Source: an uncultured Clostridia bacterium (GTDB taxonomy: Bacteria; Bacillota; Clostridia; Christensenellales; UBA1750). Taken from it: a stretch of DNA of 39,932 nt. The notes under the pieces are model-generated. The model saw only the letters and a program-made list of their open reading frames with translations. It ran no database searches and was not told where the DNA came from. How positions within the stretch are numbered: position 1 is the stretch's first letter; each line of letters starts with the position of its first letter. The stretch lies in NCBI GenBank assembly GCA_944381265.1, contig CALWKN010000134.1:1-39932 (forward strand), written 5' to 3'. Both the position numbers and the translations under genes were made by a program. Shown piece by piece: positions 21,129 through 37,486 of this stretch.

Positions 21129-21157
21129 TTGCGCAAGGCCCGCCGCTTCGCTATAAT
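21129..21157 (+). promoter_or_regulatory. Sigma-A-type promoter TTGCGC-17 nt-TATAAT for the lipoprotein gene
   Basis: Read directly: -35 at 21129-21134, 17-nt spacer, consensus -10 at 21152-21157. It lies ~100 nt upstream of ATG 21259. Confidence 0.5.
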
Positions 21158-21258
21158 ACCCCTATGGAAAAACCGCGCGGCAAAGCGAAATGTGGACGAT
21201 CCGTGAAGTCCTTTCCGCACCGCGCGCAACTTACGCAAGCAAAAAGGAGACCATTCAG

Positions 21259-21705
21259 ATGAAACGCATACTCGCCCTGCTTCTTGCGCTGTGCGCGCTG
21301 TCTATGCTGACCGCCTGCACCGACGGCCCGCTGATCGCCACGGCCACGCCCGTGCCCACGCCCACCCCCACCCCGGAGCCGACGCCGGAGGTGACGTACC
21401 TGGAGTACGAATTCCTGCCGCAGGACGAGGGCATCGGCGCGCTGATCCCGGACTTCCCGCTGATCCTGGAGGTCGTCGTCATAACGGGCGACGAATCGAT
21501 CTTCGCGGTGTTTGAGGAATACGACAGCAGCACCATCGACGACTACATCCAGTCGCTCAAGGACGCGGGCTTTACGGTGATCGACGAGGAGAGCGATATG
21601 TTCTTCGCCGCCTCCAAGGAGGGCACGGACGGCCTCCTGCGCGTCAACCTGATGTACGAGGGCGGCTACGGCACGCTGCAGGTCTACGACGACCGGGAAC
21701 CCTGA
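21259..21705 (+). CDS. Hypothetical lipoprotein with Pro/Thr linker
   Basis: Signal peptide MKRILALLLALCALSMLTAC (lipobox), then TPVPTPTPTPEPTPE linker. AAGGAGA RBS at 21244-21250. This is the last high-GC gene before the low-GC block. Confidence 0.75.
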   Translation: MKRILALLLALCALSMLTACTDGPLIATATPVPTPTPTPEPTPEVTYLEYEFLPQDEGIGALIPDFPLILEVVVITGDESIFAVFEEYDSSTIDDYIQSLKDAGFTVIDEESDMFFAASKEGTDGLLRVNLMYEGGYGTLQVYDDREP

Positions 21706-21976: not shown

Positions 21977-22963
21977 TCATGACTCAAGCAAAAGTCTATA
22001 TTGTCTCGGCGTGATTCCGTATTCATCTTTGAATATCTTGAAAAAGTGACTGATCGAGTGGTAGCCGACTCTTTCAGCAATTTCCCCTACTGGCATTTTG
22101 CTGTTTGACAATAGCTCTATCGCCTTTTGCAGCTTCGCTTCCTTCATAATGTCTTTGCAGTTTCTTCCCGTTCGCATCTTGATCAAACGCGTTAAGTAAT
22201 TCGGCGTATAGTGGAAGTGTTCCGCCATTTCATTGAGCGTAGCATATGTGCAATTTTCACGGATATAGTCCAGTATCTGCTGCGTCGATTCATCCACTCC
22301 GTAGAAGCTAAATTCTCCCAAACGTTCCAGGGTGATGAAAAGCAGGACCAAGTATGCCTCCAGTGCAATATCGGAGCACAAATCCTCCCTTGTGTATTCA
22401 TGGACAATTTCTCGAATTCGGTTCTGGATCAAAGCATCCGCCCGCGCAGCAAAAAACATATAATTTCTAACGATGTCGGTTCCATTCTTTAGAAAGTTCG
22501 CTATTTGATTGTCTTCCATGCAGAACCCTCGCAGCATTCCTTCAAATACAGATGGAAGCAAATCGATATTGATCAAGACGGCGTTTTTGTCTATGCACTC
22601 CAGTTTATGCTGCGCATTTGTATTGTGTAGGCAAAGATCTCCCTGCCCCATATAGAGATTCTCTCCATCGACCTGATTGATCACACGCCCCTTGCACACA
22701 TACAGTATCTCAAAGAAATCATGGCGGTGCTGGCCGAAATTCGAATGCACATCATAGCAATAGATATATACATCGTTTCTTCCTTGCATGGGCTGTCTGT
22801 CAAACAGAGATGTTCCCAGTGCAGGATCTTGCTGATATATATCAATCAGCGTGCGGTCGGCAAAATCCTCTGGAAGAATGTCCAACGGCATTGTTTTCAT
22901 CGGATTTGCCGCATTAAGTGCGCGAATCAGCTTCAAAGGCAACAAGCCGCTATAGTCCGCCAT
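21977..22963 (-). CDS. AraC-family transcriptional regulator (cupin sensor plus HTH)
   Basis: Cupin-like N-terminal half (HRHDFFEILYVCKG). C-terminal AraC HTH (MAEHFHYTPNYLTRLIK...VGYHSISHFFKIFKDEYGITPRQYR). AAGGAGGG RBS precedes ATG 22963. G+C is about 40%. Confidence 0.9.
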   Translation of the reverse strand: MADYSGLLPLKLIRALNAANPMKTMPLDILPEDFADRTLIDIYQQDPALGTSLFDRQPMQGRNDVYIYCYDVHSNFGQHRHDFFEILYVCKGRVINQVDGENLYMGQGDLCLHNTNAQHKLECIDKNAVLINIDLLPSVFEGMLRGFCMEDNQIANFLKNGTDIVRNYMFFAARADALIQNRIREIVHEYTREDLCSDIALEAYLVLLFITLERLGEFSFYGVDESTQQILDYIRENCTYATLNEMAEHFHYTPNYLTRLIKMRTGRNCKDIMKEAKLQKAIELLSNSKMPVGEIAERVGYHSISHFFKIFKDEYGITPRQYRLLLES

Positions 22964-23070
22964 GATTTCCCTCCTTTCCAAATGAAATTCTTTCATGTGC
23001 ATTATAGCAAACCAACAAAAGTTTTAAAATGCAATGTAAGAATATCGCATTTTCTACACATGCAACCGCA

Positions 23071-23099
23071 TTGAATACGCCGTATAAAAAGTAGATAAT
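23071..23099 (+). promoter_or_regulatory. Candidate promoter TTGAAT-17 nt-GATAAT for the oxidoreductase/TIM-barrel operon
   Basis: Read directly: -35 at 23071-23076 and -10 at 23094-23099. GAAGGGA RBS at 23114-23120. ATG at 23132. Confidence 0.4.
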
Positions 23100-23131
23100 G
23101 TAACTAATCCATAGAAGGGAGCGTAGAGCAC

Positions 23132-24295
23132 ATGAGAGAAATCCGAATCGGCATCATAGGCACCGGTATCATCGCGCACCAACACATGCAGATGTATCAA
23201 GACATCGAAGGCGTCCGAGTTGTCGCCGCCTGCGATCTGATCCCCCAGAAGCTGGATTGCTTCTGCAAGCGTTATGGAATCGAGTTCCAATACGCAGACT
23301 ATCGGGAATTGCTCAAGCGGGACGACTTGGACGCCGTAGACGTCTGCCTGCACAACAATCTTCACGCCCCGATTTCCATCGATGTAATGGCTTCCGGAAA
23401 AAACTGCTACTGCGAAAAGCCTATGGCGGGTTCCTACGCAGACGCACTGGCGATGTATAAAGCTGCCAAACGGTATGGCGTAAAGTTCCACATTCAGCTT
23501 GCCATGATTTATGGCGGCGAAGTGATTGCCGCAAAAAAGCTCATAGACGAAGGATACCTGGGACACATCTACCATGCGCGGAGCTATGGATATCGCCGCC
23601 GTGGTCGTCCTTTCGTGGATGGATACGCGGAAAAGGAGTTTAACTCGCAGTATTGGGCGGGGCATGGCGCTCTATACGACATGGGTGTGTATCACATCTC
23701 GCAGCTGCTGTATCTGCTCGACCTGCCAAAGGTGGAGCGCATCAGCGGGAGCATCTATCAGGAAATGCCAATGGACGAAGAACGGCGCCGCATCAGCGGC
23801 TTCAACGTCGAGGAACTGGGCCTTGGCCTTGTAAAATTCGAGAATGGGCTGACGATGGACATTCTTGAATCTTGGTCCATTCATGGCGCCCCCTTCCCGG
23901 CCTCCTCGATCCATGGCGCGCAGGGCGGTCTGCAGTTTGCGCAGAGCGGGCAGCTCAAATACTACTCCGAGATTGCCGGCTACATGGCGGAAACAACACT
24001 GGACGTGGCCAGCGAAGATTACCGCCAGACACAGCTGAATCCGCCGAGCCGGCTGCTGTACAAGAATTCGCAGGCGCACTGGATTGGCGTACTGCGGGGC
24101 GAGTGCCCGCAAATTGATACGCCTGCCATCGCGCTGCAGACGATGCTGATCTCGGAAGGCATTTTCCTGAGCAATCAGCTGAAGCGCGAAGTCAGTGCGG
24201 AAGAAGTTCAGGCTCTGAGCGTTTCCAACGCCATTACGGAACAGGAAACACCCTTTGGCGAGCTCGTCTACCGCAAGTACCCTTTTCAGGATTGA
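23132..24295 (+). CDS. Gfo/Idh/MocA family NAD(P)-dependent oxidoreductase (paralog 1)
   Basis: Rossmann N-terminus IRIGIIGTGIIA and family EKP motif (CYCEKPMA). 387 aa. Confidence 0.9.
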   Translation: MREIRIGIIGTGIIAHQHMQMYQDIEGVRVVAACDLIPQKLDCFCKRYGIEFQYADYRELLKRDDLDAVDVCLHNNLHAPISIDVMASGKNCYCEKPMAGSYADALAMYKAAKRYGVKFHIQLAMIYGGEVIAAKKLIDEGYLGHIYHARSYGYRRRGRPFVDGYAEKEFNSQYWAGHGALYDMGVYHISQLLYLLDLPKVERISGSIYQEMPMDEERRRISGFNVEELGLGLVKFENGLTMDILESWSIHGAPFPASSIHGAQGGLQFAQSGQLKYYSEIAGYMAETTLDVASEDYRQTQLNPPSRLLYKNSQAHWIGVLRGECPQIDTPAIALQTMLISEGIFLSNQLKREVSAEEVQALSVSNAITEQETPFGELVYRKYPFQD

Positions 24296-24332
24296 CGGTC
24301 AAAAGACAAATTATACAAAAGGAGAAAAGAGA

Positions 24333-25184
24333 ATGAAAAACAGGTTTTCCGTCGCGTCTTATTCCTTCCATGGGCTCTATGCCGTCGGAGCGATAAACAT
24401 TTTCCACTACTTTGAGACCGTTCGCTATCGCTATCACTTGAACACCGCCGATATCTGGAACGGCATGCTGGAGCGTTATGACGAAGACTATCTTCGCCTG
24501 GTCAAGCAGCAGATGGATGAGCACGAACTTGCGCTCGTCAACCTTTGCTGCGACGGCGCTCATGTCTGGAACGACGACGAAAAGGAACGCGAACTTTGCA
24601 GTCGTCGGGCCGAAGACTGCCTGCGCGCCGCAGAGATCCTCGGCGCGGAAACCGTTCGCATTGATCTGGGCCTGGCCGGAAGCGATGCAACGGACGAACA
24701 AATCGAACACTGCGCGAAGATATATGACGCATACTGCCAGCGAGCAGCGCAGTTCGGCGCAAAACTCGGGCCGGAGAACCACTGGGGCGCTTCGACGAAC
24801 GTTGCGGTCATGCGCAAGCTCTTCGAGGCTGTCAAAGCACCCAACTTCTCGCTGTTGTTGCATCTGGGGAACTGGCACAAGACACCCGATATTACGTTCG
24901 AGAAGAGCTGCGAATACGACGTAGAATTTGCGGCGCGTGCCATGCATATGCACATGCATTATGAGGCATGCTTAAACGCAGAAAACCAGTTCCCCGCGCT
25001 TGCCAAAGCCGGATACACGGGTTGCTGGGGCATTGAAAGTCACAAGTCTGTCAACGAATACAACAATGTCGCCTTCCAGTTGGCACAGGCGAAGCGCGTG
25101 CTCGTCCCGCTGATTTACAAAGCCAAGCCGCAGGGAGAACCGAGCCCCGAAGTTGCGACGTTGATCGAAAAGCTGTCGAAGTAA
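24333..25184 (+). CDS. Xylose-isomerase-like TIM-barrel protein (sugar phosphate isomerase/epimerase, AP_endonuc_2 family)
   Basis: 283 aa from ATG 24333, with a GGAGAAAAG RBS. FSVASYSFHG N-terminus and the acidic/His pattern (RIDLG, GPENHWG, HMHMH, GIESH) are typical of this fold. The track start at 24255 overlaps the upstream gene and lacks an RBS. Confidence 0.85.
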   Translation: MKNRFSVASYSFHGLYAVGAINIFHYFETVRYRYHLNTADIWNGMLERYDEDYLRLVKQQMDEHELALVNLCCDGAHVWNDDEKERELCSRRAEDCLRAAEILGAETVRIDLGLAGSDATDEQIEHCAKIYDAYCQRAAQFGAKLGPENHWGASTNVAVMRKLFEAVKAPNFSLLLHLGNWHKTPDITFEKSCEYDVEFAARAMHMHMHYEACLNAENQFPALAKAGYTGCWGIESHKSVNEYNNVAFQLAQAKRVLVPLIYKAKPQGEPSPEVATLIEKLSK

Positions 25185-25197
25185 AGCCACACAGACC

Positions 25198-25244
25198 AAG
25201 GGGGAATGGCGCGCAAAACAGGAACGCTCCATTCCCCCTTTTGC
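25198..25244 (+). terminator. Intrinsic terminator after the TIM-barrel gene
   Basis: CAAGGGGGAATGG (25198-25210) pairs with CCATTCCCCCTT (25229-25240), followed by TTGC. Confidence 0.65.
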
Positions 25245-25270
25245 ACAATACACAACAGTGAGGGATTTTC

Positions 25271-26806
25271 TTGAAACGGATTGAGAGTCGAATCGTAAAC
25301 GTGCAGCAGGGAAAGCTCCGCGGCGTTGCCGGGCGCAATCCGGAGATCAGCGTATTCCGCGGCGTTCCTTACGCTGCCCCGCCAACGGGCGCTCTGCGCT
25401 GGCGGCCGCCGCAAGCGCCCGCGTCCTGGCAAGGCGTGCGTCCTTGCATTCGAGAACCTATTGTGCCGCTGCAGCAGCAGGGGCAATTTGCTGACGGTGG
25501 CCACTTTGCAGAGATGTACCGCAGCGAGGAATGTTTGACGCTGGATGTTTGGACGCCTGCGCAAGAAAACACTGTAGAAAAATATCCGGTCATGGTCTGG
25601 TGCTTCGGCGGAAGTTTCCAAGGCGGTTACGCCTCAGACGCCATGTACGACAGCGAACTCATCGCCGCCAGGGGAATCGTCTGCGTTGCGCTCAATATGC
25701 GCGTAGGCATAATGGGGTACCTCTGTCACCCGGGTCTGGCCGCAGAAAGCGAAACTTGTACCTGCGGGAACTACGGCCTTCTGGATATCGCTTTTGCCCT
25801 GCGCTGGATCCAGAAAAATATTGCCGCATTTCATGGAGACCCTGAACAGGTAGTATTGGTTGGACAATCCACAGGCGCAATGAGCCTATGCCGGCTGGCT
25901 GCGTCGGGACTGATCGACGGGCTTTACGCAGGCCTGATCCTGCAAAGCGGCGATCCTTTAGTGGACTTCTCCATTTTCCATCGCGACTATGAGGACGCTT
26001 TGGCAGAAGGACAGCGCTTTGCAGAAGCTCTGGGCGCGCGCGATATGGAAACCCTGCGTTCGCTTCCGCCGGATGCGTTTTACCCAAACGGAGAAAACCT
26101 CTACACGCGCATCATCGGCCATCCGTGTGTGCCGGTGCAGGATCCGGTGTATTTTACGACGCCCTTTTCGCTGTCTTTGTTTACGGAACACACGGCATCG
26201 GTTCCCATTCTGCTGGGCTCCAATGCGGACGACTCGCTTTCCATCTGCCCTTGCACACCGGCAGAACTGCGTTCCGACATCAAGGCGCGGTTCTCCGTTT
26301 TCGCGGAAGAGGTGCTGAAACTCTATCCTTTTTCCACGATGCCGCAGGCCCTGAAGATGCAAAGCCGCATGGAGCGGGATTTCTGGTTTGCGCGTCTGCG
26401 CTACATTGCTCTAGTGCGCGCAAAGATGGGTCATGCAAAGACCTGGCAATACTTCTTTACGCAGCCTTACCTGTGGCCGGGAATCGGACTTGTGGGCGCC
26501 GTGCATGTATCGGAGCTCCCGTATATCTTTGGCTCTATACGGCTGTTGAAAGGATACAATTATCCGTGGGACGAGACCAACGATCACATTTTCCAAATCA
26601 TGTCCAGCTTTTGGAGTTCCTTTATCCAGCGGCGAGATCCAAACGTTGGCTGGCTGCCCGTATGGTTTCAGCGCAGCGCAACGCACAGCTACATGGAGAT
26701 CGGGCTGCACACAGGTATGCGAACAGACGACATGGTTCTAACTGCTCAACAGCTCGATCTGTGGACTCGATACTGCCAATATCGCACAGGGATTAGCGTG
26801 GATTAA
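25271..26806 (+). CDS. Type-B carboxylesterase/lipase family protein (PnbA-like)
   Basis: N-terminus GKLRGV...FRGVPYAAPPTGALRW. Nucleophile elbow region FHGDPEQVVLVGQSTGAMS. TTG start at 25271 with a GAGGGA RBS. Confidence 0.85.
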   Translation: MKRIESRIVNVQQGKLRGVAGRNPEISVFRGVPYAAPPTGALRWRPPQAPASWQGVRPCIREPIVPLQQQGQFADGGHFAEMYRSEECLTLDVWTPAQENTVEKYPVMVWCFGGSFQGGYASDAMYDSELIAARGIVCVALNMRVGIMGYLCHPGLAAESETCTCGNYGLLDIAFALRWIQKNIAAFHGDPEQVVLVGQSTGAMSLCRLAASGLIDGLYAGLILQSGDPLVDFSIFHRDYEDALAEGQRFAEALGARDMETLRSLPPDAFYPNGENLYTRIIGHPCVPVQDPVYFTTPFSLSLFTEHTASVPILLGSNADDSLSICPCTPAELRSDIKARFSVFAEEVLKLYPFSTMPQALKMQSRMERDFWFARLRYIALVRAKMGHAKTWQYFFTQPYLWPGIGLVGAVHVSELPYIFGSIRLLKGYNYPWDETNDHIFQIMSSFWSSFIQRRDPNVGWLPVWFQRSATHSYMEIGLHTGMRTDDMVLTAQQLDLWTRYCQYRTGISVD

Positions 26807-27128
26807 ATCTTCTCAAAAGAGATCGTGACGCTTTCGCACCAGCTTGCCCGACAACAACGCAGAAAGCTGCCGGTTGGGAATGGAATGCTGCACGCACAGA
26901 GGGAGACATCTCTTCTAGGCGCAGGCTTCCATTCCTTTTTTCCAGCTCTTCCTCCAGTTCAACATAAATTCTGCAAAGGACCGCAGATCTGTGGATCATA
27001 CAAGGCTGTGGGTCTTGAAAGAACTCCATGCTTAGGTCCAAAATCACGTTTTCTGGTGGAACAAAGAAGTGCAGTGGAGCGTCAGCAAGGAGCTCTCCCT
27101 GCGCATCCAACACCTGAATGTTCAACAT
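26793..27128 (-). CDS. Hypothetical protein (111 aa) downstream of the CcdA-like gene
   Basis: AAAGGAGAAGG RBS lies 6 nt before ATG 27128, which is 25 nt after the upstream stop. I recognise no family. Its 3' end overlaps the convergent esterase by 14 nt. Confidence 0.45.
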   Translation of the reverse strand: MLNIQVLDAQGELLADAPLHFFVPPENVILDLSMEFFQDPQPCMIHRSAVLCRIYVELEEELEKRNGSLRLEEMSPSVRAAFHSQPAAFCVVVGQAGAKASRSLLRRFNPR

Positions 27129-27152
27129 ACTACGCCTTCTCCTTTCTCGAAG

Positions 27153-28589
27153 TTACAAAACGAGCTGTACGCCCCAATACACAGCGATGACGACAAAGAA
27201 AACACCATTGGCAAACTTTATGACCGGCATCATTTTTCTTGCAGTTTCCGTCAGTTCAAATACCTGCTTACCGCAAACGGCAAGGAAGGCCAGGGCGCAC
27301 ATCGGAAGCGAAAGCCCAACGATATACACCAGCAATACGGCGAAAGACGCTATCTGCGCTTCTGCCATCACGATCAAGCCCGCCAAAGTGACCTGTCCTG
27401 TGCAGAAGAACTCGCCCCCTGCCATGAGCACGCCAGCGCCAACGAGCAAGGGCAGCAGCCACTTTCCCTGAACTCCCTGCACGCGGGAAAGGAAGCGCTG
27501 GTTAATGCTGCGGAGCTTTGCCGGGAGTTGCAAATGTATGCGCCCATAGCGTTCCGCGCGTGCCTGAAAGAAATCACCGAAGTTAAGCAGCGCCAACGCA
27601 AGACTGAGCAAGAGCAGCATAATCTGCAGCCCTTTCATCCATCCACTGATTTGGATCGTCTGGACGATGCCCGCGAAACAGAGGAAGGCGGTGCAGATCG
27701 CCGTATACATCAGGCCGCGGCCCAAAATATAGGCCAGATAGAAGCGAAAAGGACGCTGCATCTGCAGACCGGCGATCAGAAAGAAGAACAGCGACAACGA
27801 GCATGGGTTAAGTCCCGCAAGCAGGCCTGCGCCCAAAGCGGAAAGCAGACTCAGAGGCGCTGTATCCGCTTCATTGTGCAGCTCCGGATAGTGAAAGCCC
27901 TGCAGCGCCCCCGTAGAAAGCAATTGCGGCAGATTCTCTTCGATAGCCTCTACGCCGGACAGGTATCCTCCGGCATAGAACAAAATGGGGACCTGTCTTG
28001 CCTCCGCTGGCACTTCCCACTGAGAAAAACAGGCTTCCAGCAGGGCAAGGCCATTGGGCTCCAGTATGCTGTATGACTCACACTGGAGTGCTGGATTATC
28101 GCTCTTGAACTGATTGAGCCATGCGCTGGTTCGGCTGCAATCTATGCAGGGCGAAGTGTAGAAATACAGTGCAACTTCAGCGTCAGGATCCGGATCGGGC
28201 GGCAGCTGATCCGCTTGAAGATCGGACTCCTGCGATGGCAGAGAAAAAACGAGGCTTTGTGCAATGGCATCTTTTCCAGAAATATACGTATCGCCTATAA
28301 AGAGCGCGGGCAAGACGCGTTCCGCTTCCGACACGCCCAAGCGATCGCAGCGTTCAAGGAAATCCTCTCGGCCCGTCTGCGCGGTGTTTTCCACGGTAAG
28401 CACATAAGGGGTGTGATTTAGCGCAGGGGCATATTGCTCAAAAAGCTCATAGAACTCGCGGTCCTCATGGCAAGATGCGCAATACGACTCGTAATAATAC
28501 GCGATTTGTAATTTCTCAGGTGCACAGCCCTGAAGGCATAACACGAATATACAAAAGAAGCACAGGCAAAGCAAACGCAGTGTTTTCAT
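27153..28589 (-). CDS. Exported tandem CXXC (glutaredoxin/thioredoxin-like) domains fused to a six-TM DsbD/CcdA-like membrane domain
   Basis: N-terminal signal/lipobox-like VLCLQGC. CASC at aa 37-40 and CIDC at aa 148-151. Each CXXC is followed ~60 aa later by a LF(I/Y)-G-x-Y(I/L)SG motif. The C-terminal half has six hydrophobic helices with GLNPCSL and EFFCTGQV cysteines. Confidence 0.8.
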   Translation of the reverse strand: MKTLRLLCLCFFCIFVLCLQGCAPEKLQIAYYYESYCASCHEDREFYELFEQYAPALNHTPYVLTVENTAQTGREDFLERCDRLGVSEAERVLPALFIGDTYISGKDAIAQSLVFSLPSQESDLQADQLPPDPDPDAEVALYFYTSPCIDCSRTSAWLNQFKSDNPALQCESYSILEPNGLALLEACFSQWEVPAEARQVPILFYAGGYLSGVEAIEENLPQLLSTGALQGFHYPELHNEADTAPLSLLSALGAGLLAGLNPCSLSLFFFLIAGLQMQRPFRFYLAYILGRGLMYTAICTAFLCFAGIVQTIQISGWMKGLQIMLLLLSLALALLNFGDFFQARAERYGRIHLQLPAKLRSINQRFLSRVQGVQGKWLLPLLVGAGVLMAGGEFFCTGQVTLAGLIVMAEAQIASFAVLLVYIVGLSLPMCALAFLAVCGKQVFELTETARKMMPVIKFANGVFFVVIAVYWGVQLVL

Positions 28590-28668
28590 ATGTCTTTAAA
28601 ATTCAGGGCCCCGGGAGGAATCGCCCAATACAGCTATCATCCGGGGCCCACAAGCAAGTTGAAGAGGG

Positions 28669-30384
28669 TTACTTTGTTATGGACGAATTGAGTTCATCCA
28701 GGACATTCTGCACAACAGGGCGATTGGCCTCGACCCAGGCGTTGAAATTGGCTTCGATGTCGCCATCTGCCACAACCAGCGCCGAGAGTTCATCGCCATA
28801 ATCCATGGAAGAAACAAACTTGTCGTAGTACGTGCCGGAGAAGAGCTGCAGATCCCAGTCAATGGGGCGGATTTTGCCTTCAGCCTTGATGGCAAACGTT
28901 GCGTTGACGGCATCGCGGATCTCCACAGGCAGTGCGGGGTCTTCCAAAGAGAAGCCATCGGTGCAGACCGTCATGCACTCTAGGAAGTTTCCAAGGGAAG
29001 GATAGATGCTGCCGATCGAGGGCCAGGAACCGCTTTCATTCTGCGGGCGGAGGATCTCCATATTCCCTTCGTCGTCATACCCCCAATCCTGACCGTAGAT
29101 GCCAAGGCGAAGCAGGTACTGACCAGGATCCGAAGAAATCCAATCGAGCATCTGGAGGAAACGGGTCAACTTTTCGTCGGAGAGAGAGGGGCTGAAGATC
29201 GTGCCGCCCCAGTAATTCGTGGTTTCGGAGTTATAGGCGATTCCATCGTCCGCAACACTTGCGGCGTAGTGGAGGTTGGCGCCATCGTTGCCCTCCACAC
29301 TGACAAACTGGTTATAGGTGCCGAACGTGCACATGCCCGTTCCGCAGTCAAACACAGCAGCGGCCAGTCCAGAAGCCAGGTTGGAAGAAGGATTGCGGTT
29401 GGTGGAAATATAGAACTCCTTATGCAGAACGCCCTTATTCCAAGCCTCCTGCATCACGCGCAGGCCTTCCAGAGTTGAGGGATCCTCCGCGCCCCAGACG
29501 TACTGGCCCTTTTCCTCATCGAAGTAGAAGGTGTCGTAATAGGGATTGTAGGGCTGTACGAAAATCTGGCACAGGTAGTTCAGGTGTGTCGAATCGATGC
29601 CAAACGTCTGGCCGGGGATTGCTCCGGGGAGGTCCGTAGCGGCTGCCACCTGAGAGCAGAAGTCAATCAGTTCCGACGGCGTATAGCGGTCTTTGATCTC
29701 AAAGCCAAGCGCCTGCAGCCAATCCTTGCGCAGGACCAGCATCTGGTGTCCGACGAGCGGATCGGTGGGCGGATCGCGATACACGACTCGCGGGAGGATG
29801 TAGAGCCCACCGAAACGCTCAACAAACTGGTTGGAGATCTCCGTGCGCTCCAGAACATTGTTGAGCATGGGGTAGTTCTCTGCGAAGTTCTCCATCGGGA
29901 TCTCACGAATGAGTCCCTGGTCCACATAGTTGCTCAGGTCTGCATAGTTGATGTTGTAGAACATGACATCGGGCATATCGCCGGAATTGATCCAGATGCG
30001 CATGGTCTCATCCCAGTTGTCCCACGTCAGGTTCGTCGCTTCTTCAAAGCGGAAATTAAACTTGTTTTCGATTGTGCACATGATGTCGTCGCACTGGCTG
30101 AAGTCCTGCACTTCTGTGGACATGCCAACGCCGGCATAGGTATAGCTGAACTGTTCCTGCTGGCTGTAATCGACATTTGCGTACAGTCCGCCGTCGGTCG
30201 TCGGGTCGATGCCAGGGTTCAAAGCGGCGCTGTCAGCCGGTTCTGTTCCCGCAGACTGCGCGGGATCACTCGGGGACTCGCCGCCAGAATCACTGGGCTG
30301 CGAGGATGTCTGCGAGGGGGTGCACCCAACTGTGGCGAGGAGCAGTAGCATCGCCAAAGCCGCTGCTAGGATTCGTTTACGCAT
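28669..30384 (-). CDS. Extracellular solute-binding lipoprotein (large LplA-type SBP), island copy
   Basis: MRKRILAAALAMLLLLATVGC lipobox and a Ser/Pro-rich linker. AAGGAGG RBS precedes ATG 30384. 571 aa. Confidence 0.9.
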   Translation of the reverse strand: MRKRILAAALAMLLLLATVGCTPSQTSSQPSDSGGESPSDPAQSAGTEPADSAALNPGIDPTTDGGLYANVDYSQQEQFSYTYAGVGMSTEVQDFSQCDDIMCTIENKFNFRFEEATNLTWDNWDETMRIWINSGDMPDVMFYNINYADLSNYVDQGLIREIPMENFAENYPMLNNVLERTEISNQFVERFGGLYILPRVVYRDPPTDPLVGHQMLVLRKDWLQALGFEIKDRYTPSELIDFCSQVAAATDLPGAIPGQTFGIDSTHLNYLCQIFVQPYNPYYDTFYFDEEKGQYVWGAEDPSTLEGLRVMQEAWNKGVLHKEFYISTNRNPSSNLASGLAAAVFDCGTGMCTFGTYNQFVSVEGNDGANLHYAASVADDGIAYNSETTNYWGGTIFSPSLSDEKLTRFLQMLDWISSDPGQYLLRLGIYGQDWGYDDEGNMEILRPQNESGSWPSIGSIYPSLGNFLECMTVCTDGFSLEDPALPVEIRDAVNATFAIKAEGKIRPIDWDLQLFSGTYYDKFVSSMDYGDELSALVVADGDIEANFNAWVEANRPVVQNVLDELNSSITK

Positions 30385-30430
30385 ATTGGTTCCTCCTTTT
30401 TTATTTCGGGCTCGACCCGAAAGAATACGC

Positions 30431-31348
30431 TTACGCTTTGATCGCACCGATCAACATGCCTTTGACAAAATACTTCTGCAGGAAGGGATAGACACACATC
30501 ACCGGCAGCATTGTCAGTATAATCGCGGCCATCTTCATGCCTTTAACGGGCTTGAGCGCCTGTGCAAGGTCTGCCGCGCCGCTCCCGCTCTGCCCGCCGG
30601 ACGTTGCAATCTGCGCCTGCATGACGATGTTCCTGAGCACGATTTGAAGCGGCTTCATATCGTTTTTCCGCAAGAACAGCATGGGATTATACCATTCGTT
30701 CCAGCGGTCGACCAGACAGAACAACGCGATCGTGGCCAGAATCGGCAGGGAAAGCGGCAAGATAATGCGCAAAAAGATGGTAAATTCCGACGCTCCGTCA
30801 ATTCGCGCGCTCTCCCTGAGCGCAGCCGGGATGGAAAGAAAGTAGTTGCGTGTGATGATGAGATAAAAGGTATTGCACCCCGACGCGAGCACTACCGACC
30901 ACAGCGTGTTCATCAGGTTGAGCTCTTTGATAACCAAATAGAGCGGCACGATTCCGCCATTGAAGAGCATGGTAATCAAAACATAGAGGATAAAAAGCTT
31001 CTTTCCGGGGAAAGTGTCCTTACTCAGAGCATAGGCGGTCAGCGTGATCAGGAAAAGATTTATGGGCAGCGCCAAAGCCACGAGGGAGAGCGTCGTGCGG
31101 TAACCAATTCCAATTGAACCGCCGCCGAGGAGATCGATATAGCTTTGCAACGTAGGCTCCTGGGGGAAGAGCAAAAAGGGAGTGCGCGTGTATTCCACCA
31201 TAGGAGAGATGGAAACGATCACGACATTGTAAAACGGGATCAGTATGAGCAGCGCGCCCAATGTCACGATGATATATATAATGACTGTAAATAGGTCAAT
31301 CTCTCTTTTCTTCTTTCGCGTAGATACGTTTTGCGTCGCATTTTTCAT
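30431..31348 (-). CDS. Sugar ABC transporter permease (LplC-type), island copy
   Basis: Multi-TM. Loop LRESARIDGASEFTIFLRIILPLSLP. AAAGGAGG RBS precedes ATG 31348. Confidence 0.9.
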   Translation of the reverse strand: MKNATQNVSTRKKKREIDLFTVIIYIIVTLGALLILIPFYNVVIVSISPMVEYTRTPFLLFPQEPTLQSYIDLLGGGSIGIGYRTTLSLVALALPINLFLITLTAYALSKDTFPGKKLFILYVLITMLFNGGIVPLYLVIKELNLMNTLWSVVLASGCNTFYLIITRNYFLSIPAALRESARIDGASEFTIFLRIILPLSLPILATIALFCLVDRWNEWYNPMLFLRKNDMKPLQIVLRNIVMQAQIATSGGQSGSGAADLAQALKPVKGMKMAAIILTMLPVMCVYPFLQKYFVKGMLIGAIKA

Positions 31349-31385
31349 GCCAAGTACCTCCTTTTCAAAAAGTTTCAGAAACCTC

Positions 31386-32348
31386 TCACTCAAACAGGCC
31401 GTTATCCGTCAGGCGCTTTGAGCTGAAGTTCGCCAGGATCACCAGAAGGAAATTCACCAATGATTTCATAAGAGAGATGGCAGTCGAGAAGGAAAAGTCT
31501 GCGCTAGCTTGAAATGTGATTCGGTAAATATAGGTGTCCAATACATCCAAGCTCTCTTCCACCGCAGGGTTGCTCAGATTAAAGATCTGGTCAAATCCGG
31601 CATTCATCATGTTGCCTATCTGCAGGATCAGCATCACAGAGATGGTCGGCAGGAGACTGGGCAGCGTGATATAGATCATCTGTTGGAATCGGGAAGCTCC
31701 GTCAATCGTTGCTGCTTCATACTGCTCGGAATCGATCCCGGCGATGGCGGCTAGATAGATGATAGAAGACCACCCGGCACTCTTCCAGATATTGGTGACG
31801 AAGAGAAGCACAAACATCGAGGTGGAGCTGCTTAGGAAATTGACCTCTTCGCCGCCCAGGGAAACGATCAAGCCATTCACCAAGCCCGAGGATTCAAAGA
31901 CATTGATCATTACGCCGGCAACAACTACCCACGAAAGGAAATTGGGGAATGTGTATATCGTCTGTAATGCTTTTTGATATCCTTTGCGGCGTATCTCTCC
32001 CAAAAGCAGAGCAAGAATAATTGGGACGGGGAATTCCACCAAAATGCGCACCGCACTGATGATCAGTGTATTGATAAGCGCCTGGAAGAACGCGGGATCG
32101 TTGAAGACGTATTCATAGTTGCTCAGACCAACCCATGGGCTTCCCAAGATGCCAAGGTTTGCCTTATAGGACTTAAAGGCAAGCGTAAGTCCGCCCATTG
32201 GCATATAGCAAAAGATAAAGTACCATACCAGCCCGGGAAGGAGGAGGACATATGTCTCCCAATTGCGGAGTATGCGGCGGTGCAGGGGGATGGGTCTTCG
32301 ATGAGGTGCTACAGATGGGATTCGCTTGGATGCAGACAGCATAATCAT
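31386..32348 (-). CDS. Sugar ABC transporter permease (LplB-type), island copy
   Basis: Multi-TM. Loop YEAATIDGASRFQQMIYITLPSL. AGAGGAGG RBS. The start is ATG 32348 or 32342. Confidence 0.9.
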   Translation of the reverse strand: MIMLSASKRIPSVAPHRRPIPLHRRILRNWETYVLLLPGLVWYFIFCYMPMGGLTLAFKSYKANLGILGSPWVGLSNYEYVFNDPAFFQALINTLIISAVRILVEFPVPIILALLLGEIRRKGYQKALQTIYTFPNFLSWVVVAGVMINVFESSGLVNGLIVSLGGEEVNFLSSSTSMFVLLFVTNIWKSAGWSSIIYLAAIAGIDSEQYEAATIDGASRFQQMIYITLPSLLPTISVMLILQIGNMMNAGFDQIFNLSNPAVEESLDVLDTYIYRITFQASADFSFSTAISLMKSLVNFLLVILANFSSKRLTDNGLFE

Positions 32349-32510
32349 TCGGCCTCCTCTTTTCTTTTTTCTGCAAATCACTTCTTAACAAAACGGTCTG
32401 GAACGCTCCACTGGACTTAACAAAAGCATCGCACATTAGACACTCACTTGCAATTCGTTTCTCTGGTGTAATTGTGTGGATTTCTTTCCAGCGCCATGAC
32501 TTTTTCACAA

Positions 32511-32536
32511 AAATCCGCAGGCAATCCTGTGGATTT
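32511..32536. promoter_or_regulatory. Imperfect inverted repeat AAATCCGCAG-N6-CTGTGGATTT in the divergent ABC/oxidoreductase intergenic region
   Basis: Read directly: 9 of 10 arm positions are complementary. A third copy of TGTGGATTTC lies at 32475-32484. Confidence 0.3.
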
Positions 32537-32642
32537 CGCAGAAGAAAGAAAAGCGCATATTGAAAACAGAAGAAAGAATTGTCATATGTTTTCCTGTGCT
32601 TCATACTGTATTTACATTAACCTCACAAAGGAGTGAACAGGC

Positions 32643-33767
32643 ATGACGTATCCCAAACTTCGAGTAGCTGTTATCGGCAACGGAATGATCGCCAACGCCG
32701 CCCACATTCCTGCCTACCGAAACCTCTCCGACCGCGTAGAAATTGTCGCTGTTGCCGATACGCGGCTGCAAGCAGCCCAAGAAACTGCAGCACGCTACGG
32801 CATTGCCAAATGGTATGACGACCCGCAGCAAATGCTGGATGAAGTGCATCCGGACTGGGTTTCCGTCTGCACGCCAAACAACTACCACAAGCATTGGTCC
32901 ATCCAGGCGCTGCGCGCGGGCGCGCATGTGCTCTGCGAAAAGCCCATTGCCCTGCGTCTCCAAGATGCACAGGAAATCTATGCCGAGGCGGATCGAGCGG
33001 GAAAGCTGTTTTTCCCCTGTCAGTCCATGCGCTTCTCTTCCGATATTCAGGCAGCCAAGAAGATCTTCGACAGCGGACGGCTGGGAGAAGTGTACTTCTC
33101 CGACATCGAAATCATTCGCAGGCGCGGAGTTCCGACCTGGGGCATGTTCCACATGAAGAAGCACAACTTCGGCGGGCCTTTCTGCGATCTGGGCGTGCAC
33201 TTTTTGGACAGCGCGCTGTATATTCTTGGCTCTCCCAAGATGCACTCCGTATCGGGCGGCGCCTTCTGCAAAATTGCAAATCTCGGAGAGAACGTGGAGA
33301 CTTCTCTTGCTGACAGCGGCGCGCCGGCCGGAACCTTTACTCCGCGTCCGTACGACTACCATGAATTTGACGTAGAAGATTTCTCCGCCGGTTCGATGAT
33401 CTTCGAGAACAACATGATATTGAACTTCAAGTTCTCCTGGGCTGTAAACCTTCCCAATGGTGGACACATGGACTTTGCGGGTGACAAAGGCGGAATGCGC
33501 GCGTCTCCCCTGCAAATCTGGACGAACCTGGATGGCTATCAAGTAGATGTAAAACCGCACACATACGCGATGAGCCAATACCAGAATGTGCCCTTCTCCG
33601 GTCACTGGTACATGATTGAGCACATTGAGCGCTGCATCCGCGGCGAGGAAGAATATCTGGTCAAGCGGGAAGAAGCGTTGAATATTTGCGCGATCATAGA
33701 GGCGTTCTACCTGTCCGCTGAGAAAAAGCGCCCCGTTCTCATTCAGGAACTCCAGAGTATGGAATAA
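32643..33767 (+). CDS. Gfo/Idh/MocA family oxidoreductase (paralog 2)
   Basis: LRVAVIGNGMIA Rossmann N-terminus and VLCEKPIA motif. AAAGGAG RBS. 374 aa. Confidence 0.9.
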   Translation: MTYPKLRVAVIGNGMIANAAHIPAYRNLSDRVEIVAVADTRLQAAQETAARYGIAKWYDDPQQMLDEVHPDWVSVCTPNNYHKHWSIQALRAGAHVLCEKPIALRLQDAQEIYAEADRAGKLFFPCQSMRFSSDIQAAKKIFDSGRLGEVYFSDIEIIRRRGVPTWGMFHMKKHNFGGPFCDLGVHFLDSALYILGSPKMHSVSGGAFCKIANLGENVETSLADSGAPAGTFTPRPYDYHEFDVEDFSAGSMIFENNMILNFKFSWAVNLPNGGHMDFAGDKGGMRASPLQIWTNLDGYQVDVKPHTYAMSQYQNVPFSGHWYMIEHIERCIRGEEEYLVKREEALNICAIIEAFYLSAEKKRPVLIQELQSME

Positions 33768-33783
33768 AAACAGCAAAGAAAGG

Positions 33784-34911
33784 ATGAGGAATATGAAGAA
33801 GGAACTCTACAAAATCGGAATTATCGGCTTTGGCCATATGCACATCAACGACGTTGCCAAACACTTTGTCGATCATCCGCGTACACAGATCGTGGCTTGC
33901 TGCGACCTGCCTCCAGCCGTTCCGGAGATACGGGTTGCGCCGTATACCCGTGCGTGGAATTTGCAGCATGCAGTTGAAAATTTCGGAAATCCAAAGGTTT
34001 ACACGGATTACAGGCAAATGCTCAAAGAAGAAGATCTGGATCTGGCCATCGTCACGACGGAAGTTGTGAATCATCGCAAAGTGGTCATTGATTGTCTGCG
34101 TGCCGGTGTGGGTGTGAGCATTGAAAAACCCATGGCAATGAACCTCTCCGATGCTCTGGCGATGGTTCGAGAGGCGGAAGAAACGCATTCCCTGTTGTTT
34201 GTGAATTGGCCTGTCGCATGGTCTGCGGCCGCCTACAAATTAAAGGAACTCGCCGACAGCGGAGTTATTGGGAAAATCCTTGAGATGAAATACCGTACCG
34301 GGCACTCCGGACCCTTGGGACCTGGTGCCAAGCATGCCGGCGTTTCCGAAACCGCCCAGCCCATGACCGGATATGAGCGCGCGCAGACCTGGTGGCACCA
34401 GGCGCGCATGGGCGGCGGCGCGATGCTTGACTATTGCTGCTACGGGAGCCTGCTGAGTCATTGGTACATTCCTCAACCCGCAGTTGCTGTAATGGGCCTG
34501 CGCGCGAATTTGGACAGCCAGTATGGCGATGCAGACGATAATGCCGCCATGATCGTGCGCTTCCCCAATGCCATAGCACTTCTCGAGGGGACATGGAGCA
34601 CGTTCCATCACGGCATTCCCTGCGGACCGGTACTGTATGGCAGCAAGGGAACATTGGTGGAAAACTGGGATGCAATCAAGGTGTTCCCCGCGGAGGGAGA
34701 AGCCTATGACGTTCCCGTCGAACCTCTGGCGGAAGCCTGGAAGGACGTCGCTTGTGCCTATGTAACGCACATGGATACGCGCCAGCCTCTTCCGCTGCCG
34801 CTGGATATGTATTTCAATTTAGAGGCCATGGCCATACTGGATGCCGGCATACGCTCTGCTGAAAGTGGGCGCATGGAACTCATTCAGAATCGTGCCTGGA
34901 ACATTGGGTAA
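33784..34911 (+). CDS. Gfo/Idh/MocA family oxidoreductase (paralog 3)
   Basis: YKIGIIGFGHMH N-terminus and SIEKPMA motif. 375 aa. ATG 33793 is an alternative start. Confidence 0.9.
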   Translation: MRNMKKELYKIGIIGFGHMHINDVAKHFVDHPRTQIVACCDLPPAVPEIRVAPYTRAWNLQHAVENFGNPKVYTDYRQMLKEEDLDLAIVTTEVVNHRKVVIDCLRAGVGVSIEKPMAMNLSDALAMVREAEETHSLLFVNWPVAWSAAAYKLKELADSGVIGKILEMKYRTGHSGPLGPGAKHAGVSETAQPMTGYERAQTWWHQARMGGGAMLDYCCYGSLLSHWYIPQPAVAVMGLRANLDSQYGDADDNAAMIVRFPNAIALLEGTWSTFHHGIPCGPVLYGSKGTLVENWDAIKVFPAEGEAYDVPVEPLAEAWKDVACAYVTHMDTRQPLPLPLDMYFNLEAMAILDAGIRSAESGRMELIQNRAWNIG

Positions 34912-34915
34912 AGAA

Positions 34916-34947: not shown

Positions 34948-34954
34948 AAGAAGA

Positions 34955-34998
34955 GGGCGCGCAGGGGCTGTGAGGCCCTTGCGCGCCCTGGGTTTTTT
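34955..34998. terminator. GC-rich intrinsic terminator at the island/backbone junction
   Basis: GGGCGCGCAGGGGC (34955-34968) pairs with GGCCCTTGCGCGCCC (34974-34988), with T6 at 34993-34998 on the + strand. The reverse orientation could also serve the minus-strand ATPase operon. Confidence 0.65.
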
Positions 34999-35006
34999 CG
35001 CGGGCT

Positions 35007-35138
35007 TTAGTCGTCTTCCAGTATCAGCAGCGCCAGCGTCAGCAGCAGCGCGTCCTCCTCGCTCTCGCCGCTGCGGCTGAGATGGAGCAGGAGCAGCAGG
35101 AGCACCTGCCGGAGCTCCCGCGCGGAGATCTCCCCCAT
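35007..35138 (-). CDS. Small hypothetical ORF (43 aa) downstream of the ABC ATPase
   Basis: Hand-translated: MGEISARELRQVLLLLLLHLSRSGESEEDALLLTLALLILEDD. GGGAGGGGG RBS lies 5 nt before ATG 35138. It is too short for the supplied ORF track and I recognise no family. Confidence 0.35.
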   Translation of the reverse strand: MGEISARELRQVLLLLLLHLSRSGESEEDALLLTLALLILEDD

Positions 35139-35186: not shown

Positions 35187-35852
35187 TCACCGGGGCTCGC
35201 CCAGGCGCCCGTCGCGCATCTCCAGGCGGCGCTGGCAGCGGCGCGCCACGCCCTCGTCGTGGGTGATGAGGACGATGGTGGTGCCGGCGGCGTTGCGCGC
35301 CTCCATGCAGCGCAGGATCTCCCCGCCGGAGGCGCTGTCCAGGTTGCCGGTGGGCTCGTCCGCCAGCAACAGCGGCGGGCGGGTGATCAGCGCCCGAGCA
35401 ATGGCCACGCGCTGCTGCTGCCCGCCGCTCATCTGGGCGGGCAGGTGGTCGCGGCGGTGGTAGAGGCCGACGCTCTGCAGCGCGGCGGCGGCGCGCTCCC
35501 GCCGCTCGCGCAGGGGCACGCCGCGGTAGACCAGGGGCAGGGCAGCGTTCTCCAGGGCGGTCAGGTGCGGCAGCAGGTTGAAGTTCTGGAACACAAAGCC
35601 GATCTTGCGTCCGCGCACGCGCGCCAGGTCGTCGCTGTCAAGGCGCGTGACGTCCTCGCCGTCGAGGAAATAGCGGCCGCCGGTGGCGCTGTCCAGGCAG
35701 CCCAGCACGTTCATCAGCGTGGACTTGCCGCTGCCGGAGGGGCCGACGATGGCGAGGAATTCGCCGTCCCGCACCTCCAGACTGACGCCGCGCAGCGCTT
35801 CCACCGCGCAGGCGCCGCCGTAAACCTTTGAAAGCTCCCGCGTCACGATCAT
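35187..35852 (-). CDS. ABC transporter ATP-binding protein (MacB/LolD/FtsE-like)
   Basis: Walker A GPSGSGKST, signature LSGGQQQRVAIARAL, Walker B LLLADEPTGNLD. 221 aa. Confidence 0.9.
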   Translation of the reverse strand: MIVTRELSKVYGGACAVEALRGVSLEVRDGEFLAIVGPSGSGKSTLMNVLGCLDSATGGRYFLDGEDVTRLDSDDLARVRGRKIGFVFQNFNLLPHLTALENAALPLVYRGVPLRERRERAAAALQSVGLYHRRDHLPAQMSGGQQQRVAIARALITRPPLLLADEPTGNLDSASGGEILRCMEARNAAGTTIVLITHDEGVARRCQRRLEMRDGRLGEPR

Positions 35853-35909
35853 GCGCGCGCCCCCTCTCCCGCCTAGCTTGCCCGGGAAAGGGGACGCGTT
35901 ATGCGTTTT

Positions 35910-36876: not shown

Positions 36877-37425
36877 TCACGCGCCCTCCTGCGCTTCGGC
36901 GGTCTCGGGCGTTTCCTCTGCGGTCTTGACAACGTCTGTGATGATCCAGCGATGGTCCTCGTCCTTGTGCAGCGTGATTTCGTAGGTGCCGCCCTTCCAA
37001 GGCGGGGGTGGGATCTTGTTGGGGTCGGCCAATTGCTCGGGCGTCTGCTTGCTGATGGGCAGCTCGCCGGAGATCTCCACGCTCTCCTGCACCACGGCGG
37101 TGGCCGTGTCCTCCCAGGGCAGCGTGTGCAGGGACTCGACCTCGACCTGGGCGTCGAAGGAGTGGATGGTGTAGTCCAGATACGTGGTGTCCAGGAGCAG
37201 CGCATCGCCGGCCAGGTAATCGGCGGTGAAGAACTTGTTCAGCTCGTCCGCGTCGTTGTAGCCAAGGACGACGCCGGTGCGCATCTTCATGCCGTCGGTG
37301 ACCAGTATGTTTACGTTGGTATAGTCCATGGCGAACAGGAACACGCCCGCGCAAAGGGCGCAGACCACCAGTACGATGAGCGCCCAGCGCAGCACGCACA
37401 GCAGGAAACGCAGAAAATATTCCAT
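36877..37425 (-). CDS. Hypothetical membrane-anchored protein
   Basis: 182 aa with one N-terminal TM helix (ALIVLVVCALCAGVFLFA), a ~130-aa extracytoplasmic domain and an acidic tail. It is tightly coupled to dusB. Confidence 0.7.
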   Translation of the reverse strand: MEYFLRFLLCVLRWALIVLVVCALCAGVFLFAMDYTNVNILVTDGMKMRTGVVLGYNDADELNKFFTADYLAGDALLLDTTYLDYTIHSFDAQVEVESLHTLPWEDTATAVVQESVEISGELPISKQTPEQLADPNKIPPPPWKGGTYEITLHKDEDHRWIITDVVKTAEETPETAEAQEGA

Positions 37426-37486
37426 AAAGTACCCTCAATTCCGCGCAAAAGCATCGCGTATGTCCCTTCCATTTTACACCAGGTCG

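Follow-up and report, generated by a model that had tools for sequence, protein, structure and literature searches.

A transferable ten-gene island of an uncultured Clostridia bacterium encodes a candidate keto-sugar pathway for imported glycosides

The window analysed here is the whole stretch of 39,932 nucleotides of contig CALWKN010000134.1 from an uncultured Clostridia bacterium (GenBank assembly GCA_944381265.1). Positions 21977-34911 form a block of about 13 kb which, according to the listing of open reading frames (ORFs) and to Pfam and NCBIfam scans, contains ten genes: an AraC-family regulator, three Gfo/Idh/MocA dehydrogenases (Gfo1, Gfo2 and Gfo3), a xylose-isomerase-like barrel protein (TIM), a carboxylesterase (Est), a solute-binding protein (SBP) with two permeases, and a membrane protein (Memb). 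This block is probably a transferable locus by which a glycoside or oligosaccharide is taken up and then converted in the cytoplasm via keto-sugar intermediates. It is best explained as a catabolic island under AraC control for an imported glycoside or small oligosaccharide, which is possibly acylated. More tentatively, the barrel is proposed to cleave the glycosidic bond by β-elimination after oxidation at C3, with the other Gfo proteins reducing the product. The gene content, the unit character of the block, the relatedness of its dehydrogenases to DgpA and the intact metal and base site of its barrel are direct observations.

In the proposed pathway, of which we infer every chemical step, the division of labour among the Gfo proteins and the substrate, the lipoprotein SBP and the two CUT1 permeases would import the substrate with an ATPase encoded elsewhere, and the cytoplasmic Est would strip off its acyl group. 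A DgpA-like NAD-dependent dehydrogenase, for which Gfo2 would be the best candidate with Gfo1 as the companion of the barrel, would oxidise a ring hydroxyl, most likely that at C3, to the ketone. The metal-dependent TIM, with His150 as the base, would then take the proton beside the ketone, whereupon the aglycone or leaving sugar would be lost by β-elimination; hydration would follow, either by the same enzyme or spontaneously. The remaining Gfo proteins would finally reduce the keto-sugar to an ordinary hexose and recycle the hydride.

A sequence-only reading of the same DNA had named nine genes and proposed such an oxidation-first cleavage. Pfam scans place all nine at the coordinates and in the orientations it gave; the tenth gene, Memb (27153-28589), and the low-GC island nature of the block had been overlooked. 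Its remark that the block lacks glycoside hydrolases, kinases and phosphorylases is upheld, as no ORF of the block matches any of these families in the Pfam and NCBIfam scans. The same applies to the lack of a small DgpB-like subunit: no such ORF is present in 21977-34911, the intergenic gaps are too short, and no unassigned ORF is large enough. All enzymes of the block are devoid of a signal peptide.

The ten genes differ strongly from their surroundings in the GC content of third codon positions (GC3), which is 0.52-0.68 in the island as opposed to 0.85-0.94 in the flanks. The latter harbor housekeeping genes: recA, cinA, pgsA, a rimO/miaB-type gene, ftsK and scpA lie to one side, and dus together with genes for a Clp protease and an M16 peptidase to the other. 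A second lineage has all ten genes in the same order at 78% nucleotide identity. This lineage is present on at least 23 contigs, and the copies compared, which stem from four different samples, are 97-98% identical among themselves. Homology with the second lineage (L107-L110) starts exactly at 21977, the stop codon of the AraC gene, and ends at the stop codon of Gfo3 (about 34911-34912). To the left of its island, the second lineage carries a zeta-toxin-like gene as well as genes for a pRha-type phage regulator, a DUF4367-containing sigma factor and a giant Cna_B surface protein, in a local GC content of 0.42-0.62, near that of the island. Between the two island copies synonymous sites are saturated (dS > 1), and the ratio of nonsynonymous to synonymous substitution rates (dN/dS) is 0.02-0.06 for the SBP and the enzymes where computable and 0.13 for Memb. 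The exact shared borders, the collinearity and the low dN/dS argue that 21977-34911 is a natural unit kept functional as a whole. Judged from these comparisons, the block is a horizontally acquired unit under purifying selection.

The jump in composition is not the result of a chimeric assembly, since an independent assembly of run SRR27114641 contains both junctions: its contigs L001 and L111 span the right and the left one with 99.6% and 99.4% identity, respectively. Marks of mobility at the borders are confined to an 11-nt shared string, with no tRNA, integrase or transposase found there. A search of Rfam gave no RNA family across the whole window, and the plasmid collection contained no match for the island DNA or the barrel protein.

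How far the island enzymes belong together can be judged from other genomes. The scan of the barrel family, with one genome per species, gave 80 loci, and orthologs of Gfo1 were defined by an identity of at least 40% (up to 79%). Such an ortholog directly adjoins the barrel gene in 54 of the 80 loci; the two genes share a strand in 53 of them, and either may come first. The hosts belong to five phyla, Bacillota, Spirochaetota, Chloroflexota, Verrucomicrobiota and Armatimonadota. CUT1 permeases neighbour the barrel gene in 19-24 of these loci, and in several a Gfo3-like gene is the third partner of the Gfo1-TIM pair. The adjacent Gfo2-Gfo3 pair recurs in seven metagenome loci (50-55% identity), Gfo3 adjoining Gfo2 in most related loci long enough to show it, and the pair appears to be a portable module. 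Both pairs are combined in L098, an unrelated 266-kb metagenome contig of 65% GC, as one same-strand gene run Gfo1-Gfo2-Gfo3-TIM-TIM with neither a transporter nor a hydrolase among the five genes. This run is independent evidence for the four enzyme types working together.

An accidental neighbourhood of several unrelated small operons, instead of one pathway, would agree with the at least three transcription units of the block, with the hairpin between TIM and Est, and with the occurrence of Gfo1-TIM and Gfo2-Gfo3 each alone in other genomes. It would also agree with the lack of a shared operator motif in the intergenic regions, where the 11-14-nt motif GGAACGCTCCACTG has 7 matches versus 4.95 expected from shuffles. 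This explanation is nevertheless hardly credible, because ten genes have moved and been conserved as one block with exact shared borders, under purifying selection (dN/dS 0.02-0.13 where computed), and because the four enzyme types stand together in the L098 run. The earlier treatment of these genes as one unit is strengthened by the same observations.

Further observations concern the surroundings of the conserved pairs. In L100 (4885-10388) Gfo2-Gfo3 directly follow a glycyl-radical enzyme (PFL-like, 759 aa) and its radical-SAM activase, and in L094 (2647-8150) they are preceded by two ORFs matching those of L100 in size and order; the pairs of these two loci show 52-54% identity. In L091 the pair is located after the genes of an ABC importer and of proteins similar to GH42 and GH67C. 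In several related contigs (L003/L009, 8788-9948; L089, 708-1765) the Gfo1 ortholog is broken up into two ORFs, with lengths of 209+173 aa and 85+263 aa, which reflects either a frameshifted pseudogene or an assembly error; the neighbouring barrel gene is intact. Genes of the URO-D family lie near Gfo1-TIM on unrelated Clostridia contigs (L005/L006, 6545-7744; L007/L008, 12954-13994), and in L007 (10844-12346) and L008 the gene right behind the barrel gene encodes a 500-aa protein of the ADP-ribosylglycohydrolase family. On the chromosome of Bacillus sp. CSS-39 (L060, 131-20434) a same-strand gene run comprises DUF5696, two permeases, GH3, a β-1,2-oligoglucan phosphorylase (SOGP) and then TIM-Gfo1; genes for a LacI regulator and ThuA, two Gfo genes and a further barrel gene are located farther downstream.

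Gfo/Idh/MocA Pfam domains and the lysine of the EKP motif are present in all three Gfo proteins. The best match of Gfo2 in the Protein Data Bank (PDB) is DgpA of strain PUE (7xr9, E 2e-49; next non-DgpA match 2.9e-26), and the same structure is the best match of Gfo1 (E 1.6e-32; next 1.7e-21), so that in both cases DgpA outscores the next family by more than 10 orders of magnitude. Gfo3 gives weak PDB matches (best 2e-12) and shows no preference for DgpA. Identity to DgpA is 35% over 268 of 367 residues (73%) for Gfo2, 32% over 233 residues for Gfo1 and 24% for Gfo3, while a working threshold for DgpA-type proteins is at least 33% identity at a coverage of at least 80% (PMC11170127). In DgpA, K100, R159 and D182 are required for activity, and W166 and H186 are located in the glucose pocket (He et al., PMC9939296). 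The lysine and the aspartate are found in all three island proteins and the arginine in Gfo1 and Gfo2 (Ser in Gfo3); the pocket tryptophan is kept in Gfo2 (Val in Gfo1, Thr in Gfo3), as is the histidine, which is Tyr in both others. Gfo2 therefore retains five of the five sugar-pocket residues, Gfo1 three and Gfo3 two.

Against the NCBIfam models of BT_2158/BT_2159 (NF058561, NF058563) the Gfo proteins reach 16-46 bits, with cut-offs of 650-750, and against that of levoglucosan dehydrogenase (NF052479, LevoglcsnDh) 40-83 bits, with a cut-off of 650; the cut-off of the UDP-GlcNAc 3-dehydrogenase model is approached by none of them. No enzyme of the island comes near an NCBIfam equivalog cut-off or qualifies as a member of a characterised family. 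The Gfo proteins are classified by sequence as relatives of DgpA, not orthologs. The DgpA comparison suggested earlier is supported for two of the three, Gfo2 and to a lesser degree Gfo1, which are nearest to DgpA among solved structures.

The Gfo/Idh/MocA fold is also that of GH109 enzymes, and any one of Gfo1-3 might itself be a complete NAD-dependent GH109-type glycosidase, which performs oxidation, elimination, hydration and reduction in a single site and leaves an unrelated sugar tailoring to TIM. The shared fold and the lack of a classical hydrolase in the island would fit such an enzyme. The probability is nonetheless very low: no molecule labelled as a GH109 glycosidase is among the listed PDB matches of Gfo1-3, and the tight pairing of Gfo1 and TIM across phyla argues for a place of the barrel in the core chemistry.

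The AlphaFold2 (AF2) model of the barrel has a predicted local distance difference test score (pLDDT) of 96. Its sole significant solved relative is PDB entry 4ovx (E 2e-13 with the family profile, TM score 0.78-0.82, 21% identity), beneath which the fold search levels off into a flat plateau (TM 0.6-0.72) of mixed members, namely C-glycoside deglycosidases (CGD), Art22 isomerase, ketose 3-epimerases, UlaE, YcjR, IolE and the AL1/BT1 lyases. The DgpB-C and CGD entries score 0.62-0.70, and AL1/BT1 rank 44-45 with 0.60-0.61. In the PDB search with the barrel profile, IolE (3cny) is second best with a partial match (E 0.0095), 7bvs represents the CGD alpha subunits at E 0.047, and no DgpC entry is among the matches; YcjR and the epimerases are not reached by the family profile hidden Markov model (HMM) even at E 10. 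The subfamily is small, with 64 representatives at E <=1e-30 among 1.84 billion.

Alignment of 60 barrel sequences reveals E148-N-H150, H177, H207, E235, D74, R109 and D111 as invariant and H77, H205 and H237 as nearly invariant. In profile alignments E148 and H150 coincide with E-x-H in 7bvs, a deglycosidase alpha subunit, and with H-H-H in IolE, and H207 with the β7 histidine of both, while H177 stands where 7bvs, 4ovx and IolE have the β6 aspartate. The eliminases AtOGE and PuCGE employ a β5 ligand, an Asp, a His and a β8 Glu, with the catalytic His two residues past the β5 ligand (Bitter et al., PMC10628242). A ligand set of this type is found in the island barrel as E148, H177, H207 and E235 together with H150, except for the His in place of the usual β6 Asp. 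The site required for proton abstraction beside a ketone is therefore intact. The concern that the barrel might lack metal-binding residues is removed by the invariance of the ligands and the base histidine. Which reaction follows is left undecided by the site, as epimerases and dehydratases use the same one. Of the former proposal of a barrel lyase, the metal site and base histidine therefore stand, whereas a likeness to DgpC, LgdB or BT2157-type enzymes in sequence, or a fold nearer to the lyases, is not found.

A cyclitol or free-monosaccharide pathway of the IolG/IolE kind, in which Gfo1 oxidises a polyol and TIM dehydrates the ketone, would use the same chemistry as the elimination, dehydration beside a ketone. 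The rank of IolE among the matches of the barrel profile, the His-rich β5 and β7 motifs shared with it and the IolG-type models among the weak NCBIfam matches of Gfo1 and Gfo2 speak for this pathway. It is improbable all the same: the IolE match is marginal and partial, the IolG model TIGR04380 scores 39-104 bits with a cut-off of 355, other iol genes are absent from the island, the SBP is of a large oligosaccharide type, and the scores of all inositol dehydrogenases are 10 to 30 orders of magnitude worse than that of DgpA. No island enzyme falls into the inositol clades, an outcome that would have spoken against the sequence-only reading.

A weightier alternative, although still an unlikely one, is epimerisation or isomerisation of a keto-sugar without bond cleavage. 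Following the logic of YcjQ/YcjR/YcjS, one Gfo would oxidise, TIM would epimerise or isomerise the carbon beside the ketone and another Gfo would reduce, by which a rare sugar or glycoside would be made usable by ordinary enzymes encoded elsewhere. Ketose 3-epimerases and YcjR likewise have the AP_endonuc_2 fold and the E-x-H/His/Glu site, and their TM scores of 0.64-0.72 about equal those of the lyases; three oxidoreductases with one barrel suit a sequence of oxidation, epimerisation and reduction. Furthermore, the L060 pair has a phosphorylase, a GH3 enzyme and the genes of an ABC importer as neighbours, a layout resembling that of the E. coli ycj cluster. On the other hand, the barrel family profile misses YcjR and all epimerases, the island has no enzyme to cleave what its oligosaccharide-type SBP imports, and the solved relatives nearest to Gfo1 and Gfo2 are dehydrogenases of a cleavage pathway.

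Bond cleavage by β-elimination is preferred for three reasons: the island offers no other means to cleave an imported substrate, the nearest characterised relatives of its enzymes belong to cleavage pathways, and published Gram-positive clusters of such composition cleave in this way. Several observations weigh against it. The E-x-H and His/Glu site occurs throughout the superfamily and so does not point specifically to elimination, and the lyases (DgpC, CGD, AL1/BT1) have fold scores no better than those of epimerases, YcjR and IolE. The barrel has no NCBIfam match and matches no characterised lyase or hydratase by sequence, the uncharacterised 4ovx being its only significant relative in the PDB. 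Gfo1 and Gfo2 are only 32-35% identical to DgpA and lie far under every NCBIfam equivalog cut-off. The island contains one barrel, whereas two barrel or hydratase components are the rule in characterised systems, and the linkage to an esterase is limited to the closest relatives and L010. In Bacillus sp. CSS-39 (L060), finally, TIM-Gfo1 is located beside GH3 and the β-1,2-oligoglucan phosphorylase and thus does not substitute for a glycosidase there.

The SBP has no sequence match in Pfam, NCBIfam or the PDB. Its AF2 model (pLDDT 88) finds large oligosaccharide-binding proteins as best Foldseek matches (TMt 0.6-0.7) and resembles the glycosaminoglycan-disaccharide SBP 5gx8, AlgQ1/2, FusA, Blon_2347 and NgtS. 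Many of its 30 detectable homologs are named 'aldouronate transport system SBP' by the Joint Genome Institute (JGI), and homologs occur in varied glycan loci with GH1, GH38/39 or GH51/GH127 genes. With two BPD_transp_1 permeases and a lipoprotein SBP of more than 500 aa with an oligosaccharide-binding fold, the importer is of the CUT1 aldouronate type, and its former label 'LplABC-type' is acceptable in view of the permeases, the SBP fold and the names of the SBP homologs. An importer ATPase gene is not contained in the island; a 240-aa ATPase at 35187-35909 has host composition.

Memb is encoded 79 nt downstream of the SBP gene as the last gene of the importer operon. It comprises a lipoprotein signal, two extracytoplasmic CxxC segments and a CcdA/DsbD-like transmembrane core, with a weak match to DsbD_2 (E 0.008) and none to NCBIfam. 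Among 5.8 billion proteins it has 24 homologs, the distant ones named CcdA/glutaredoxin-related by JGI, and the gene is intact in L090. The SBP contains eight cysteines besides that of the lipobox, which form four close pairs (C99/C104, C244/C273, C348/C353 and C471/C475). All eight are shared by one of the 30 homologs, the SBP of the second island copy. Both eight-cysteine SBPs are encoded beside Memb, which is missing near the SBP homologs whose surroundings were examined. The cysteine pairs and the position of Memb beside these two SBPs suggest that Memb is a dedicated extracytoplasmic thiol-disulfide partner of the SBP.

Est matches PF00135 with 277 bits over model positions 2-504 of 515 and contains the GQSTG serine motif and the GAVHVSE histidine motif. 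It is cytoplasmic and lacks a signal peptide. Its best PDB match is the fumonisin B1 esterase 8s6d (5e-68; next 6e-48). In L010, a soil Clostridia genome, an esterase of 56% identity likewise follows the barrel gene. The substrate is possibly acylated, for which the generic cytoplasmic type-B esterase is the sole basis. An SBP-esterase module gains no support from L106 (Paenibacillus rigui), as the esterase beside the homologous SBP there is only 29% identical.

Taken jointly, Gfo1 and a TIM of the His177 type might be an unrecognised two-component non-hydrolytic glycosidase, Gfo2-Gfo3 its portable and possibly heteromeric keto-sugar redox partner, and Memb the protein servicing an unusually cysteine-rich SBP; as a whole this combination is doubtful.

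The features of the island are listed in Table 1. The AraC gene is divergent from Gfo1, and the LplB-like permease gene from Gfo2. The ATG start of TIM agrees with the 283-aa ORFs of L090 and L107. For the permeases the true starts are probably ATG 31348 (LplC-like; 92% identity with a 303-aa ORF in L090) and ATG 32342 (LplB-like; 93% identity with a 318-aa ORF in L090). The hairpin between TIM and Est is possibly a partial terminator, whereas the strong terminator closes the Gfo2-Gfo3 unit and sits at the right edge of the island.

Table 1. Genes and transcription signals of the island, with protein identity to the copy in the second lineage
Feature	Position	Strand	Basis	Identity
AraC-family regulator (cupin sensor + helix-turn-helix)	21977..23002	-	Pfam HTH_18 1.3e-20, AraC_binding 2.6e-10	
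Gfo1, cytoplasmic Gfo/Idh/MocA dehydrogenase	23132..24295	+	Pfam	94%
TIM, AP_endonuc_2 (xylose-isomerase-like) barrel	24333..25184	+	Pfam 1.9e-15	92%
GC-rich hairpin + T run between TIM and Est	25201..25243	+	read from sequence	
Est, type-B carboxylesterase	25271..26806	+	Pfam COesterase 4.1e-82	82%
Memb, 478-aa CxxC/CcdA-like membrane protein	27153..28589	-	ORF and sequence; weak DsbD_2	68%
SBP, large lipoprotein solute-binding protein	28669..30384	-	lipobox LATVGC; AF2 and Foldseek	89%
Permease, LplC-like	30431..31393	-	Pfam BPD_transp_1	90-93% (both permeases)
Permease, LplB-like	31386..32381	-	Pfam BPD_transp_1 1.5e-17	90-93% (both permeases)
Gfo2, most DgpA-like Gfo/Idh/MocA dehydrogenase of the block	32643..33767	+	Pfam; PDB match DgpA 7xr9	95%
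Gfo3, divergent Gfo/Idh/MocA oxidoreductase (EKP Lys, Asp...Tyr)	33784..34911	+	Pfam	91%
Strong intrinsic terminator, 16-bp stem (12 GC pairs) + T run	34954..34989	+	sequence	

Outside the island, ORFs of host composition without a family match are found at the borders (21157-21705, plus strand, 182 aa; 35008-35138, minus strand, 43 aa, the latter called as a gene in L001) and farther away (36877-37434, minus strand, 185 aa). A second sugar locus, of native composition (GC3 about 0.9), occupies positions 4589-11000 on the plus strand of the window. Encoded there are two permeases, an SBP of 599 aa that is unrelated to its island counterpart, an enzyme of the GH5 cellulase family and a protein of 497 aa without a family match.

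The concept of oxidation-first glycosidic cleavage is already known, and the island is a credible candidate version of it. What sets it apart are a barrel subfamily without a characterised member, with its exchange of a ligand Asp for His, the arrangement of three Gfo proteins as two conserved pairs, the attached esterase and membrane thiol-disulfide protein, and the transfer as a block. Cleavage via keto-sugars has lately been recognised as a general alternative to glycoside hydrolases, acts on bonds beyond the reach of ordinary glycosidases (C- and S-glycosides, both anomers) and escapes carbohydrate-enzyme annotation. As a Gram-positive candidate the island is compact, self-contained and transferable, with clear borders. 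If the cleavage chemistry is true, the pathway would be extended to a new enzyme subfamily, and metagenomes from gut, soil and termites could be searched for loci of this kind with a marker; if the island encodes an epimerase system instead, a function would be assigned to an unannotated module of many phyla.

Among known systems, levoglucosan catabolism by LgdA/LgdB1/LgdB2/LgdC likewise combines a Gfo dehydrogenase, a TIM-barrel eliminase and hydratase and a Gfo reductase. It differs in that the island Gfo proteins reach 40-83 of the 650 bits of the LevoglcsnDh model and the barrel is without an NCBIfam match; moreover, the large-ligand importer is ill-suited to an anhydro-monosaccharide. The structural genomics entry 4ovx from Planctomyces limnophilus, the only significant solved relative of the barrel, has an Asp at the position of the invariant His177, and its PDB entry name gives no function.

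The GlycDH/AtOGE/AtHYD/Gfo operon of Agrobacterium tumefaciens (Bitter et al. 2023) oxidises, β-eliminates, hydrates and reduces. Similar to the island barrel, AtOGE is a stand-alone TIM-barrel eliminase without a β subunit; its metal site includes a His, and its catalytic His comes two residues past the β5 ligand. In contrast, the oxidising enzyme of the operon is a different protein (GlycDH), the operon has two barrels (OGE and HYD), and no sequence relationship of the island barrel to AtOGE was detected.

DgpA/DgpB-DgpC of strain PUE and DfgE/DfgAB of Eubacterium cellulosolvens deglycosylate C- and O-glycosides through 3''-oxo intermediates. A metal barrel of the AP_endonuc_2 type acts there together with a Gfo/Idh/MocA 3-dehydrogenase, and the DgpA operon has DgpF as a further Gfo gene. 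DfgC/DfgD (AKC35075, AKC35076), associated with cleavage of flavonoid O-glucosides in which no DgpB subunit takes part, could be the closest characterised pair. No solved structure is closer to Gfo2 and Gfo1 than DgpA, whose sugar pocket is retained in Gfo2. Contrary to the DgpA and DfgE systems, the island lacks a gene for a DgpB subunit, Gfo1 and Gfo2 are only 32-35% identical to DgpA, and the island barrel is not DgpC-like by sequence (7bvs, at E 0.047, is the only family member reached) and replaces the β6 Asp ligand by His; in addition, the island comes with an importer, an esterase and a membrane redox protein.

A stepwise glycan pathway of oxidation, elimination and hydration has been described by Nasseri et al. 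for BT2156-2160, Alistipes AL1-5 and fosmid P2B11, of which the Gram-positive four-gene cluster Iso1-Oxido1-Oxido2-Iso2 (P2B11) was shown to work in this manner and further architectures were predicted. The island differs by its three Gfo proteins and single barrel (P2B11 being compared by description only), by 16-46 bits against the BT_2158/BT_2159 cut-offs of 650-750 and by the fold ranks of 44-45 for AL1/BT1. Common to both are glycosidase-free clusters with at least two Gfo oxidoreductases and barrels of the sugar-phosphate-isomerase type, and the Gram-positive version is, as here, cytoplasmic, metal-dependent and devoid of DUF1080.

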